NCBI GenBank assembly: GCA_964611335.1
Contig: CAZSXR010000001.1
Location: forward strand, 382,993 to 446,992
Direction: 5' to 3'
Source of the DNA: an uncultured Pseudobdellovibrionaceae bacterium
GTDB lineage: Bacteria > Bdellovibrionota_B > Oligoflexia > Oligoflexales > Bog-1112
DNA length: 64,000 nucleotides
In this document: piece by piece, positions 1,207 to 64,000 of the stretch
Layout of the letters: every line of letters begins with the position of its first letter
How positions within the stretch are numbered: the first letter of the stretch is position 1
The notes under the pieces: generated by a model
Database searches by the model: none
Told to the model about the DNA's origin: nothing
Seen by the model: the letters and a program-made list of their open reading frames with translations, nothing else
Made by a program: the position numbers and the translations under genes

Positions 1207-1884
1207 TTATTTCATTTTGTAAATCATCAATAGCTTCGAAATCGATTGAGCGTTCGCAACTTGATTTTTCACAATGCGAGAGAACGCGTTAAAAGCCACG
1301 ACAGCAGGAATCGCAACTAACAAACCTACAGCAGTCGCAACCAGTGCTTCTGAAATCCCCGTCATCACAACGGAAGGCCCCCCTTGTGGGTTCACGGAAA
1401 GATCATGGAAGGCCTTGATAATCCCCACCACCGTTCCAAAAAGACCCACGAATGGAGCATTGTTTCCCAAGGTTCCTAAAACCACCAAACCCCTATCCAG
1501 TTTGCTCCGTCCCCCGATAATCAGACTTTCCATACTTCCTTCCATCGCTTCTTTGCTTATTCGCCGATTGCGCAAACCCTCCAATGCAACCTGTGCGGCA
1601 AGTGAGCGCTGAGCTGCACATAATCCTTCGGCTTGCTCATATTCTCCGCGTTTTAAGTAGTCTGCGAGGGTCTGACTGAACTGTTCAAAATTGTGACGGG
1701 TTCTGAAAAAGAAGAGTAAGCGTTCAAGAATGATCGCTATAGACAGCACGCTTAAAAATACCAATAACCATAAAACCCACTCGGCACCGACCAGAGTGAG
1801 ACCTAAAAATGATTTCACGAGATTCCATCCACCCACGGATTTGTCCTTTCTTTGATTATGGAGAGCTTTGCATAATCTTAGCAT
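1207..1884 (-). CDS. exbB: MotA/TolQ/ExbB proton-channel family protein
   Basis: C-terminal half carries GNNAPFVGLFGTVVGIIKAF, typical of the family, plus 3 TM segments. The ORF track extends to 1992, but the first 36 codons abut the tRNA and look non-coding. I prefer the ATG at 1884; the start is uncertain. Confidence 0.8.
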   Translation of the reverse strand: MLRLCKALHNQRKDKSVGGWNLVKSFLGLTLVGAEWVLWLLVFLSVLSIAIILERLLFFFRTRHNFEQFSQTLADYLKRGEYEQAEGLCAAQRSLAAQVALEGLRNRRISKEAMEGSMESLIIGGRSKLDRGLVVLGTLGNNAPFVGLFGTVVGIIKAFHDLSVNPQGGPSVVMTGISEALVATAVGLLVAIPAVVAFNAFSRIVKNQVANAQSISKLLMIYKMK

Positions 1885-1997
1885 AGAATATTGTGAGCTT
1901 TGCAGACCTAAAAAACATCGCCCTGCATAGAAAGATCCCCGAAACATTTCTTTGTTGACACAAACCCGGATTAACTTGTAGAAGATCTTCACCTTAA

Positions 1998-2074
1998 GCG
2001 GGAGTAGCTCAGTTGGCTAGAGCGTCGCGTTGCCATCGCGAAGGTCGAGGGTTCGAGTCCCTTTTCCCGCTCCA
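1998..2074 (+). tRNA. tRNA-Gly (anticodon GCC), CCA encoded
   Basis: Hand-folded cloverleaf: acceptor GCGGGAG/TTCCCGC, D-arm GCTC..GAGC, anticodon stem TCGCG/CGCGA with loop TTGCCAT (GCC), and a T-arm GAGGG TTCGAGT CCCTT. It ends in a discriminator T plus CCA. Confidence 0.93.
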
Positions 2075-2107
2075 TTTTTTCATCCTAATCAATTCAGTTC
2101 AAAGTTC

Positions 2108-61685: not shown

Positions 61686-61775
61686 GTATCTTGGGGTGTC
61701 CTACCTAGTCGAGGGGGCTCTTATCAGTTAGTATTGCTTTGTGTTGGAAAGATAAGAACGTTTCGCTTCTGAATG

Positions 61776-62189
61776 CTAACCTACTGAAAAATGACCTGGG
61801 AGATCTTTAGTCTTCATAGAAACGACTTCACAGGGGGTGTCTATATCTTTGCTTTTACGTTCAAGAGCAGCTTGTGCGTCCTCTTGCGTAACGTACCAGT
61901 GGTTGTTTAACCAATGCCAGGTCCCTTCACCGTTCCAGTTAGGATTCCGGTGAAAGACACGAAGGACATAGGCATCCGCCTTTCCTTCAGCTCTTAGCAA
62001 TTGTTCGATTTTTTCTTTACGCCACATGCGGAGTCGGCGTTTTGCGACAGGGAGGCTTAGTCCACGACTAAGGCGGGTTAGACCCGTATCGAGATCGAAC
62101 TCTTGGAAGACCCAAGTCGTCCCTTGTGAAAAAATTTCAGAAGTGATCTCGGCTATCTTTTCTGCTTCAGTCTTGCTCAATGGTCTCAT
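61776..62189 (-). CDS. hypothetical protein
   Basis: Clean ORF; no recognised motif. Start at the ATG at 62189 preferred over GTG at 62204. Confidence 0.4.
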   Translation of the reverse strand: MRPLSKTEAEKIAEITSEIFSQGTTWVFQEFDLDTGLTRLSRGLSLPVAKRRLRMWRKEKIEQLLRAEGKADAYVLRVFHRNPNWNGEGTWHWLNNHWYVTQEDAQAALERKSKDIDTPCEVVSMKTKDLPGHFSVG

Positions 62190-62474
62190 TGCTCTAAGCA
62201 CCAATCCAATTCTAAATGGTAATACTTAAAGGCCAGGAGTGTGGCCATACGCGACAATTTGCAATTTAGGAGAATCGCCGCCTTAAATCAATTCAAAATG
62301 ACCTAGACAAATGAATTTTTGGTTGAAATTTTTCTAAGAAGCAGAAATTTTGCGTAAAATTTTTTAAAAAAACTACGGAACCCTTTCTCTACAAGCTTTA
62401 GAGTGTGGAAGAAGTCTTTCCATCAAAAAGCAGCGAACAGATTCGATTTCTCTTTCTGAAAATGTTTTGCAATT

Positions 62475-64000
62475 ATGAAGAAAAAAGAAATGTGGGAAGC
62501 ATCGAAGGGAAATCCACGAATGGGACATCGTCAACCTTGCATCTTAGCTATAGATCTTACGGCATTGGGGCTAAAAACTGCTGTTCTGAGCGTTCAGGGA
62601 GATATTCTTGCATATGAAGAAAATAAAACCTCAACATTCTATAGAGAAGATGGTGGAGTGGAACAAGATCCCAAGGAATGGTGGGCCGCGGTTACGGAGA
62701 GCATTCATAACATCTTGAAAAAGAACCCTTCTTTGAAATCTCAGATAGACGTTATATCTTGCACAGCAACTCCAGGAACTGTTGCTGTCGATGCTCAAGG
62801 AGAAGCCCTAGGTTTTGCCATCATGGACGGAGATGCTCGGGGTACCGCTTTTGCTGCGGAGGTTATTGGCTCTGGCTTTCGAAGGGCAAGGTGGGCTCAC
62901 AAATCCTGTGCTATTCCTTCTCAGTCAGGAAAAGATGGATTGGCTCACATACTTTTCCTTAAAGAAAAGAAGACCTATGCTTATGCAAAGGCTTTCAAAT
63001 TCCTCGAAGCAAAAGATTATTTGAATTTAAAGTTCACTGGAAAATATGCAGCGAGTTTTGACTCCATTTCAGGATATTGGATAACCAATAATCGAAAAAT
63101 CGACAAAGTTCGTTACGACTCAGTCCTCTTGAGAATGTCAGGCATTGATAAAGAAAAGGTGCCTGAACTGTTCAAACCTATAGACATCCTAGGACCTATA
63201 CTTCCCGATCTTGCAAGAACATTCGGGCTTCCTTCACAAACCCAGGTCGTTATTGGTAGCACGGAGCTACAAACTGCAATGCTCGGATCAGGTGCGGTTG
63301 AAAACTATGCCGCTCATTTAAACATGGGCCCTTCTTCTTTGCTCACTTGCCATGTTCCCTTTAGAAAAACAGATCGTTCGAACAATTTGGGAACTCTCCC
63401 TTCTTCTTTGCCTGGACGTTATTTCATAACGAACAAACAGGAATCAGCAGGTTCCTGTTTGAACTATCTCTGGCAAACTTTTGCAGGGGTTATGCATGAT
63501 TTGAAAGACCCAGCTCCGTCCTACGAGCGTCTCGATGCCCTTGCGCAGAATTCCGTGCCTGGAAGTCGAAGGATTATTTTCACCCCGTGGATCAATGGAG
63601 AAAGCACTCCCGTTGAAGACAAACTTGTCAGAGGAGGCTTTCACAACCTTTCTCTTCAAAATGACGCTTCTGATATTGTGAGATCTGTATATGAAGGTGT
63701 TGCTTACAACACAAAATGGCTACTTACTTCGACAGAGCGCTTTGTAAAGCACACATTGAATCCCATAGTCATAGTCGGAGAGAGTTCTCAATCGGAACTC
63801 TGGTGTCAAATTCATGCAGATATTTTGAACCGACATATTATCCAAATGGAAGAACCCGAACGTGCCAGTGTGCGCGGTGCCGCATGGATTGCATGCTTGG
63901 CTATGGGATATTTGAAGACGGAAGATCTTTCTGCTCTGGTTAAAATAAAAAAGGAATACGTGCCTGTTCAAGAGAACAAGGAAGTGTACACAAACGCATT
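62475..64000 (+). CDS. FGGY-family carbohydrate kinase (xylulokinase-like), 3' end beyond the window
   Basis: Absent from the ORF track (no stop in the window). My translation reads ..CILAIDLTALGLKTAVLS..DPKEWW..GSTELQTAMLGSGAV..RGGFHNLSL..IVRSVYEGVAYN..IVGESSQSELWCQIHADIL..RGAAWIA, which are FGGY N- and C-domain signatures. Confidence 0.8.
   Translation, partial: MKKKEMWEASKGNPRMGHRQPCILAIDLTALGLKTAVLSVQGDILAYEENKTSTFYREDGGVEQDPKEWWAAVTESIHNILKKNPSLKSQIDVISCTATPGTVAVDAQGEALGFAIMDGDARGTAFAAEVIGSGFRRARWAHKSCAIPSQSGKDGLAHILFLKEKKTYAYAKAFKFLEAKDYLNLKFTGKYAASFDSISGYWITNNRKIDKVRYDSVLLRMSGIDKEKVPELFKPIDILGPILPDLARTFGLPSQTQVVIGSTELQTAMLGSGAVENYAAHLNMGPSSLLTCHVPFRKTDRSNNLGTLPSSLPGRYFITNKQESAGSCLNYLWQTFAGVMHDLKDPAPSYERLDALAQNSVPGSRRIIFTPWINGESTPVEDKLVRGGFHNLSLQNDASDIVRSVYEGVAYNTKWLLTSTERFVKHTLNPIVIVGESSQSELWCQIHADILNRHIIQMEEPERASVRGAAWIACLAMGYLKTEDLSALVKIKKEYVPVQENKEVYTNA

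Follow-up and report, generated by a model that had tools for sequence, protein, structure and literature searches.

Repetitive extragenic palindromic (REP) sequences and their REP-associated tyrosine transposases (RAYTs, TnpA-REP) are known as REP/RAYT systems, 'REPtrons' and REPINs from Enterobacteria and Pseudomonas (PMC3116915, PMC5581495, PMC6006769). The TIRYT genes, or 'TIRtrons' (Di Nocera 2013, PMC3733652), have been equated with subclass 2.1 of the TnpA-Y1 transposases (Quentin 2018, PMC6006769). Proteins of this subclass have ~238 aa and a C-terminal extension resembling helix-turn-helix (HTH)/DnaA_C domains; they are not accompanied by REP hairpins and are prevalent in delta-proteobacteria, among others (PMC6006769). 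Here we describe a RAYT-like gene in a 64,000-nt stretch of the genome of an uncultured Pseudobdellovibrionaceae bacterium of the Oligoflexales (positions 382,993 to 446,992 of contig CAZSXR010000001.1; hereafter the window), together with the 9-nt word GGACGGAGC, which flanks this gene and is dispersed through the window. In combining a Y1 transposase-like gene with a repeat that both flanks it and is dispersed, the system is of a known kind, and the nearest published description is that of subclass 2.1/TIRYT. Judging from sequence comparisons, GGACGGAGC probably serves a small, lineage-specific RAYT/TIRYT-like HUH clade of Oligoflexales (Bdellovibrionota) as its cognate end or recognition word.

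The gene was identified by Pfam, NCBIfam, alignment and an AF2 model:

19621..20331, + strand: RAYT-like Y1 (HUH) tyrosine transposase gene, 236 aa

The protein matches Pfam Y1_Tnp with 40.6 bits (gathering cutoff 23). Within an alignment of 40 homologues, N59, H60 and H62 of the HuH motif (N59-H60-A61-H62, NHAH) are invariant, as are Y120, N124 and R125 of the Tyr motif (Y120-I-W-L-N124-R125, YIWLNR). The AF2 model (predicted local distance difference test, pLDDT, 82; predicted TM-score, pTM, 0.80) has its top fold match in the PDB in 4ER8_A (E 6.9e-6, TM(target) 0.71, root-mean-square deviation 2.1 A over 143 columns), which is the E. coli REP-associated tyrosine transposase bound to a REP hairpin; the TnpA proteins of IS608 and ISDra2 rank next. 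A family-profile search of PDB sequences returned no TnpA at E<=1, and the kinship is visible by fold only. The C-terminal part of the protein is extra, helical and conserved among homologues, and the Pfam scan found no family there. The family is narrow, with 48 cluster representatives at E<=1e-30 among 1.84 billion proteins, and is surrounded by a superfamily of 15,990 at E<=1e-3. The source contig holds two paralogues, 69% identical. Homologues and paralogues are 38-72% identical to the window protein, not near-identical.

Homologue contexts were taken from three JGI metagenome contigs (L001, L025 and L026), one 2.78-Mb ENA contig (L147) and 17 loci of GTDB species representatives (Oligoflexales, Bdellovibrionota and Pseudobacteriovorax where titled). 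The gene neighbours differ between the window and L001, and no tnpB was found beside the gene in the annotation of the window, L001, L025, L026 and L147. In the window the gene is bracketed by + copies of the word upstream and - copies downstream:

19514..19522, + strand: left-flank copy, variant GGACGGAGT, member of the upstream + pair
19549..19557, + strand: left-flank GGACGGAGC nearest to the RAYT start, 63 nt before the ATG
20332..20547, + strand: AT-rich non-coding spacer from the RAYT stop to the first right-flank copy
20548..20556, - strand: right-flank GGACGGAGC, inverted relative to the left flank
20567..20575, - strand: right-flank GGACGGAGC, second unit of the 19-nt tandem unit 20545-20582

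The 18 further homologous loci (38-72% protein identity; at least 10 assemblies or metagenomes) all have motif copies beside the gene as well. Both flanks are occupied in 16 of them, and L008 and L012 are without a downstream copy. The homologous open reading frame (ORF) has ~235 aa; from the end of the nearest upstream + copy to the ATG it is 54-134 nt, or 267 nt in L016, a partial locus, and an array of - copies follows an AT-rich spacer, which measures 216-254 nt from stop to motif in 14 of 16 loci. Alignment of the spacer downstream of the RAYT-like genes shows no sequence conservation, and it matches no Rfam family.

The hexamer CGGAG[C/T] is invariant across loci (core NNNCGGAG[CT]), and the triplet before it varies between GGA, GCA, GCT and GAA. 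Loci whose proteins are 61-72% identical to that of the window (L001, L025 and L026) carry GGACGGAGC, with the GGA triplet, on both sides; those with 38-58% identical proteins have GCA, GCT or GAA before CGGAG[CT]. By these sequence comparisons the 5' triplet tracks the protein clade. The words on the left and right can differ, as in L003 and L006 (GCT/GCA), L007 and L009 (GCA/GCT) and L013 (GAA/GGA). The metagenome-assembled genome Go_Eff_bin_111 (Oligoflexales; L005-L009 and L015) holds at least six diverged RAYT-like paralogues, many more than usual for RAYTs; they use two dialects only, GCA and GCT, in differing left/right combinations.

At several loci the cognate word is found beside the gene and hardly anywhere else: all 6 copies in L026, all 8 in L147 and 5 of 6 in L016, with essentially all cognate copies within ~450 nt of the gene in the 12-21 kb scanned. 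Because the copies of these three loci sit essentially only at the gene, the word belongs to the gene unit. Dispersed copies beyond the gene occur in the window, L001, L008 and L012; 17 copies lie outside the flanks in the window and 11 in 18 kb in L001. Sequence comparison marks this wide dispersal as a lineage-specific expansion in the window and one metagenomic relative (L001), where the word reaches a density of ~0.3-0.6 copies per kb, coding DNA included.

A further element lies between the left flank and the gene:

19577..19591, + strand: 5'-untranslated box TGTCACTCG with the inverted repeat GTCA..TGAC, 44 nt before the ATG

The box, [AT]GTCAYTYG, stands 41-45 nt before the ATG in 11 of 19 loci (window, L005-L010, L012, L014, L025 and L026); with <=1 mismatch it was counted in 9 of 19 loci versus 2% of control windows. 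It keeps its spacing relative to the ATG and not relative to the 9-mer, and it usually comes with a short inverted repeat, GTC(A)...(T)GAC. A promoter or operator function is conceivable, as is recognition by the enzyme as a small hairpin.

The system resembles REP/RAYT systems in several ways: inverted copies of a short repeat stand on either side of the Y1 HUH gene to which it belongs, and further copies are dispersed and clustered elsewhere in the chromosome; there are diverged paralogues, two on the source contig but at least six in Go_Eff_bin_111; repeat and protein co-vary; and the closest fold is 4ER8. The repeat itself is different, being a linear word of 9 nt without hairpin or GTAG foot, whereas REPs are palindromes of 20-40 nt. 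Its conserved length is only 9-13 nt, and it is not a 20-40-nt imperfect palindrome with a GT[AG]G foot. No consistent structure was obtained when 69-nt windows around all 23 copies of the window were folded, nor when 64-nt windows were folded around 35 RAYT-proximal copies (mean z -0.5); the GCTCGGAGC dialect alone forms a mini-palindrome (3-bp/3-nt). REPs are extragenic, whereas most copies of the word are intragenic without insertion (19 of 23 in ORFs). The protein also departs from RAYTs in its length of 236 aa with the extra helical C-terminal part, in its NHAH and Y-x3-NR motifs and in a match below the NCBIfam cutoff.

With TIRYTs the system shares a RAYT-like gene that has terminal inverted repeats (TIRs) on its sides rather than REP hairpins; its protein, at 236 aa with the helical C-terminal part, may be compared with the ~238 aa and the C-terminal extension there. 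TIRs, too, sometimes form moderately abundant families, dimers or clusters, and TIRYTs are prevalent in delta-proteobacteria-like lineages. By contrast, the TIRs described are longer and share GGGGWSAS, in place of NNNCGGAGC here; the protein motifs are NH[VYF]H and YIELNP or Y[IV]HLNP there, NHAH and YIWLNR here; and the C-terminus is HTH/DnaA_C-like there, a match that the Pfam scan did not find here. A hexamer with a variable triplet, junction micro-duplications and length-neutral intragenic copies are reported in neither PMC3733652 nor PMC6006769. A full-text literature search for the word gave, among the matches listed, only unrelated primer or construct sequences, and a search on Oligoflexia repeats turned up no paper. 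Absent from the literature that we found are a 9-nt unstructured word made of an invariant hexamer and a co-varying triplet, the junction footprints, the length-neutral occupation of conserved coding positions and the occurrence in Oligoflexales.

GGACGGAGC is present in 23 exact copies in the window, 13 on the + and 10 on the - strand. A preliminary description, made from the letters of the window alone, had placed 22 of them, all at the right coordinates and in the right orientation, and overlooked one + copy (10726). Its eyeball estimate of ~40% GC agrees with the 38-44% computed, and its background expectation of ~0.2 copies with the mean of 0.19 (maximum 2) in dinucleotide-preserving shuffles of the window and with 0.16-0.22 under Markov models of order 1-3. 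An order-4 model gives 0.85 expected versus 23 seen, with parameters contaminated by the motif itself. GGACGGAGC is the top-ranked 9-mer of the window by frequency, and all A/T-rich words rank below it. The copies are clustered (variance/mean 2.28 in 2-kb bins, P=5e-4), and 10 gaps between them are shorter than 300 nt, a number never reached in 20,000 random placements. Across 37 copies from the window and L001 the extended consensus is T-N-GGACGGAGC-W-A-A, and the flanks of the copies do not align beyond ~3 nt.

When up to one mismatch is allowed, 48 matches are found versus 5.7 expected from shuffles; the one-mismatch variants named in the preliminary description are all among them. Of the 25 one-mismatch copies, 18 fall on three variants, GGACGGAGT (seven copies), GCACGGAGC (six) and GAACGGAGC (five), and the 24 other possible variants account for 7 copies in total versus roughly 5 by chance (shuffle mean divided). 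The concentration is on exactly those variants that are found at other RAYT loci. One-mismatch copies are thus not random decay products of GGACGGAGC, and since they concentrate in three variants, the word is all-or-none save for a few permitted dialects.

Inside ORFs of at least 100 aa lie 19 of the 23 copies, in a window with a coding fraction of 90%. The earlier count of 9:9 between coding and template strand becomes 10:9 once the extra copy is added, and the counts of reading frames hold: Ala-Pro-Ser seven times, Thr-Glu six times and Gly-Arg-Ser twice, plus other frames. The claim that the DNA word is conserved and not the peptide is strongly confirmed by codon choice. All seven Ala-Pro-Ser tripeptides of the window are encoded by GCTCCGTCC (GCT-CCG-TCC), for which codon usage predicts 0.6% per tripeptide; every such tripeptide of the window exists because of the word. 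Of 77 Thr-Glu dipeptides, 16 are written ACG-GAG (~3.5% expected). The codons used by the word are rare ones (CCG 11%, ACG 15%, GAG 23%).

For mutL, orthologous regions syntenic from lon to miaA are available in L020, L022 and L023 (MutL N-terminal domains 60-81% identical). L020 comes from the same metagenome as L001; a metagenome scan with MutL gave only one distant locus (32% identity). The syntenic mutL region of these three relatives has 0-1 exact copies in 12-22 kb versus 9 in the window. Seven copies are located in mutL itself, in agreement with the preliminary description, and further copies in genes could be compared with orthologues or solved homologues:

46891..46899, + strand: copy in the MutL ATPase domain, GGTER versus GGKKR/GGSKR/GGTKR in orthologues, same length
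47089..47097, + strand: MutL N-terminal domain copy (GTEQ), matched in position by GGACGGAGT in L020
47357..47365, + strand: copy in the MutL N-terminal domain (RDGA); L020 of equal length, L022 and L023 one residue longer
47770..47778, + strand: variant GAACGGAGC, start of the MutL linker cluster
47788..47796, + strand: MutL linker copy (RTEQ)
47821..47829, + strand: MutL linker copy (RTEQ)
48011..48019, - strand: MutL linker copy, forming an 11-bp inverted pair with 48067, 43 nt apart
48067..48075, + strand: MutL linker copy (RTEQ), with a 12-nt tandem duplication just 5'
49235..49243, - strand: copy in miaA (Ala-Pro-Ser), in a variable segment
50359..50367, - strand: copy in a DUF2227 gene, HSAPSRNWG versus HSSPTQNWG in the orthologue, length-neutral
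25009..25017, - strand: copy in tyrS, C-terminal domain (Gly-Arg-Ser); 1-residue gap versus 6BYQ
26438..26446, - strand: copy in a heptosyltransferase gene (Ala-Pro-Ser)
26703..26711, + strand: copy in the heptosyltransferase gene (Thr-Glu), gap-free versus 3TOV
26936..26944, - strand: copy in the heptosyltransferase gene (Ala-Pro-Ser), gap-free versus 3TOV
63513..63521, - strand: copy in an FGGY kinase gene (Ala-Pro-Ser); only 1-residue gaps, in a loop

Six copies align gap-free with orthologues or solved homologues, three in the MutL N-terminal domain, one in the DUF2227 protein and two in the heptosyltransferase. At the ATPase site the codons read GGT GGG ACG GAG CGC in the window versus GGT GGC AAA AAA CGC in an orthologue (GGKKR), and at the second MutL site R-G-T-E-Q stands against R-G-T-E-S, R-G-A-E-A and R-G-S-E-T in orthologues. 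At three of four sites the orthologues match the word at 3-5 of 9 positions, and at the site where L020 has the variant at 4-8; each gain therefore took several changes within 9 nt. In miaA a 1-residue gap lies five residues upstream of the copy in comparison with L020 and none in comparison with L022, and there is no 3-codon insertion. The copy at 26438 adjoins a 4-residue gap versus 3TOV in which the window protein is the shorter one, hence no insertion. The preliminary description had suggested, as one of two readings, an in-frame-inserting repeat linked to the RAYT gene. The link is borne out by the inverted copies at the gene in the window and the 18 further loci and by the variant that tracks the clade; the insertion is not, since apart from the six gap-free copies only one-residue gaps or the 4-residue shortening were met. 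An origin by insertion is ruled out for the alignable intragenic copies, none of which shows a 3-codon insertion.

Only the five unalignable copies of the MutL linker (47770-48075) could be insertions. This linker is dense in motif copies (RTEQ three times), cannot be aligned with those of L020 and L022 and is ~90 residues shorter, MutL having 648 aa in the window (46740-48686) and 740 and 737 aa in these relatives. A perfect 12-nt tandem duplication at 48040-48065 of the linker, CTGTAATCCCTA x2.2, encodes VIPTVIPT immediately 5' of the copy at 48067. The end of mutL shares 16 nt with the beginning of miaA (48671-48686). L020 has this 16-nt overlap too (12208-12223), and L022 has one of only 4 nt.

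Transposase-linked repeats in genes, including the replication and repair genes uvrA and uvrB, have been described (PMC3733652), and the presence of the word in mutL recalls them. The published cases, intragenic REPs and Rickettsia palindromic elements, are insertions, and over half of them encode 20-30 extra residues in loops or linkers (PMC3733652); most testable copies of the word, by contrast, add no residues.

The arrays beside the genes are asymmetric around the hexamer (a slash marks the junction with the triplet). The 3' side of CGGAGC is constant and locus-specific, and the 5' side is made of tandem micro-duplications that stop at the triplet. In L008 (9766-9918) a 14-nt unit is repeated like a microsatellite 5' of a single CGGAGC, (CGACAAGTAAGGCA)x11/CGGAGC, and in L006 (9650-9800) ~25 copies of CTCTAG precede a single CGGAGC, (CTCTAG)n...GCT/CGGAGC. 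The array of L007 reads GTGTGATGGCA/CTGTGTGATGGCA/CGGAGC and that of L013 (AGAAAGTGGT)x5...GGA/CGGAGC. The window has an 11-nt tandem duplication at 19530-19551, GAGGTGTTGGA x2/CGGAGC, ending at GGA/CGGAGC. Overall, among 211 copies, a tandem duplication of >=90% identity stops exactly at triplet/CGGAGC in 14; the corresponding figures are 12 for 5000 random positions and 4 for the 3' side, and exact duplications stop no later than the CGG of the hexamer. These footprints suggest the triplet/CGGAGC junction as a candidate nick site.

Two junctions can also enclose a short unit. One of 18-19 nt, CGGAGCAA(A)G.TCTTAGGA, is in tandem at the end of a major facilitator superfamily (MFS) gene in L001, and a closely similar 18-nt unit, CGGAGCAAGATCTTAGGA, lies between the copies 47788 and 47821 of the MutL linker, a place not homologous to that in L001. 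A scan of viral contigs for two copies within 30 nt gave at least 120 stretches with a median GC of 61% and was uninformative; we take these to be mostly coding tandem repeats and the pattern to be too noisy for collection-wide scans.

These observations suggest how the word may function as the end of the RAYT-like unit. The enzyme would bind the hexamer and nick or join single-stranded DNA at or just after the triplet/CGGAGC junction. The segment between two sites, down to the 18-19 nt of CGGAGCAA.G.TCTTAGGA, would be the minimal mobile unit, and an excised unit would re-insert at an existing site, as in the 'peel and paste' of IS608, giving tandem arrays and local clusters. Slippage induced by nicks would yield the micro-duplications of the 5' flank.

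The elements of the IS200/IS605 family (IS608, ISDra2) have the same catalytic fold, and the presumed logic is alike: the cleavage site adjoins a short flank or target oligonucleotide, TTAC in IS608 and the triplet here, which is separate from the element end that the protein binds, and excised units would re-insert next to such sites. Their ends, however, are non-inverted with subterminal hairpins, whereas those here are inverted; and their copies are near-identical and numerous, often with tnpB, whereas the genes here are diverged paralogues without it.

Several points weigh against taking the word as the cognate end of such an enzyme. The match to NCBIfam REP_Tyr_transpos (NF047646) reaches 43.8 bits, below the cutoff of 80, and the Tyr motif is Y-x3-NR rather than the class-2 signature Y-x3-NP (PMC6006769). 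Slippage alone could yield the micro-duplications from which the junction is deduced. Hairpins are the substrate of known Y1 transposases, and none is formed with GGACGGAGC; to our knowledge, a hairpin-free word differs from every characterised substrate of these enzymes. Finally, insertion cannot account for the intragenic copies, as no 3-codon insertion is seen where alignment is possible.

Transposition leaves the length-neutral intragenic copies, together with the lack of a near-miss excess, unexplained. For these copies we infer whole-word installation, or strict maintenance, via the same recognition system. A more specific proposal, which we consider doubtful, is that a RAYT-family HUH enzyme, or a host process dependent on it, installs the 9-nt word in coding DNA without insertion; nick-primed short-patch synthesis and the annealing of excised single-stranded units at the replication fork are candidate routes. 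HIP1 of cyanobacteria (GCGATCGC) is likewise an abundant short intragenic word that arises without insertions. It spreads by substitution. Unlike GGACGGAGC, HIP1 is a palindrome, is evenly abundant genome-wide and is associated with methyltransferases rather than a Y1 transposase.

The word could instead be a host signal under selection, which the RAYT-like gene merely targets for insertion and does not spread, in the way that IS1397 and ISKpn1 reportedly target REPs. The intragenic copies compared here, all without insertion, would suit such a signal, the strict constraint at the DNA level resembles selection for a word more than transposition, and a fixed distance from ORF to word is also expected where the ends of an element abut their target. 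A pre-existing abundant target is not evident, however, in L026, L147 and L016, where the word is present essentially only at the gene, in arrays on both sides, and not in the surrounding 10-20 kb; the differing left and right words of L003, L006 and L013 suit the ends of an element better than one split target; and close relatives are without the word in the syntenic region. We regard this explanation as unlikely.

The other reading of the preliminary description was an uptake-signal-like element, like the DNA uptake sequences (DUS) of Neisseria and the uptake signal sequences (USS) of Pasteurellaceae. Such an element would have been enriched by biased uptake in transformation, and the RAYT arrays would be incidental or hitch-hiking. 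The likeness consists in a short word on both strands, intragenic in tolerated frames, to which the protein bends by amino-acid changes; there are also the seven copies in mutL and a prepilin-type N_methyl gene in the related locus L001. DUS and USS have a high and fairly even density along the chromosome in all members of a lineage and are independent of transposase genes. Here the copies are strongly clustered and patchy among close relatives, as the mutL region illustrates, and at all 19 loci a transposase gene is set between inverted arrays of the word or its dialects, two of which can coexist in one genome. In several relatives the cognate word stands beside the RAYT gene only. There is no near-miss excess at core positions, and the only close inverted pair of the window is the one within mutL, with no pairs downstream of genes. 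The window contains no competence genes, which is weak evidence in 64 kb. The enrichment in genome-maintenance genes claimed earlier comes down to one gene. An uptake signal is accordingly disfavoured, and we judge it quite improbable.

A polar chromosome signal of the Chi/KOPS type, which is likewise an over-represented non-palindromic word of 8-9 nt, is more improbable still: the copies show no strand polarity (13 + and 10 -) under a cumulative GC skew that rises steadily across the window, and tight clusters, tandem arrays and a RAYT link are atypical of such signals. Composition, codon usage or a recurrent peptide can practically be dismissed as the source of the excess, and nothing beyond the location of 19 of 23 copies in ORFs speaks for them. 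The shuffles and the Markov models (order 1-4) predict 0.16-0.85 copies, the word falls in several reading frames on either strand and uses rare codons, and it recurs in intergenic arrays of unrelated contigs; a peptide- or codon-driven excess is refuted by the shuffles, the codon analysis and the Markov models.

The other copies mapped in the window, exact and variant, are as follows:

1504..1512, - strand: dispersed copy in a MotA/ExbB gene (Gly-Arg-Ser)
10726..10734, + strand: dispersed copy in an AhpC/TSA-family gene
18937..18945, + strand: dispersed copy in a SpoU methylase gene, template strand
19166..19174, + strand: copy in the SpoU ORF, N-terminal extension (Ala-Pro-Ser), which may be non-coding
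19202..19210, + strand: copy in the N-terminal extension of the SpoU ORF (Ala-Pro-Ser)
30117..30125, + strand: intergenic copy between fumarase and EngA-like GTPase genes
18071..18079, + strand: variant GGACGGAGT
22500..22508, + strand: variant GGACGGAGT
25493..25501, - strand: variant GGACGGAGT
25629..25637, + strand: variant GGACGGAGT
25685..25693, - strand: variant GGACGGAGT
48798..48806, - strand: variant GGACGGAGT
22592..22600, - strand: variant GCACGGAGC, which in other genomes is the flanking word of RAYT homologues
25878..25886, - strand: variant GCACGGAGC
29240..29248, - strand: variant GCACGGAGC
49123..49131, - strand: variant GCACGGAGC
49285..49293, - strand: variant GCACGGAGC
63259..63267, + strand: variant GCACGGAGC
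6083..6091, - strand: variant GAACGGAGC
26762..26770, - strand: variant GAACGGAGC
27019..27027, + strand: variant GAACGGAGC
33130..33138, - strand: variant GAACGGAGC

Three tandem repeats of other kinds were also noted. At 42470-42643 a unit of 21 nt (or 33/54 nt) is present in ~8 copies within the ORF pair 42262-42873/42281-42877; it is probably a Lys/Glu-rich repetitive coding segment and unrelated to the 9-mer. At 24242-24327 a 27-nt unit is repeated 3.2 times with 94% matches in ORF 24189-24857, which has no Pfam/NCBIfam match, and the hexanucleotide TGATCG is repeated 6.8 times at 40743-40783, the 3' end of the trigger-factor gene. A tRNA gene (Rfam, 65.9 bits) occupies 1998-2071 on the + strand, just ahead of the start codon (1992) of the MotA/ExbB ORF, which runs on the minus strand. 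The 1314-aa protein encoded at 4952-8896 combines AMP-binding, PP-binding and hexapeptide-transferase domains in the manner of a single nonribosomal peptide synthetase-like module. Several large ORFs (514, 703, 482, 598, 436 and 325 aa) at 11116-15500 and 54821-61618 match nothing in Pfam at E<=1e-5.

The role of RAYTs and the way in which their repeats spread are open questions, and the Oligoflexales clade offers an unusually simple, unstructured substrate of 9 nt, with natural footprints that give a candidate nick site. Here a transposase-linked repeat occupies conserved protein domains with a change in length of one residue or none and forces amino-acid replacement. If the enzyme is responsible, this would be a new route of repeat propagation and a caution against calling uptake signals from k-mer statistics alone. 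If installation without insertion is true, a site would have spread by conversion and not by transposition, and REP/RAYT systems would be joined in mechanism to words propagated by substitution (HIP1, DUS). In practice, GGACGGAGC and its dialects are also lineage markers for the little-studied genomes of Oligoflexales.

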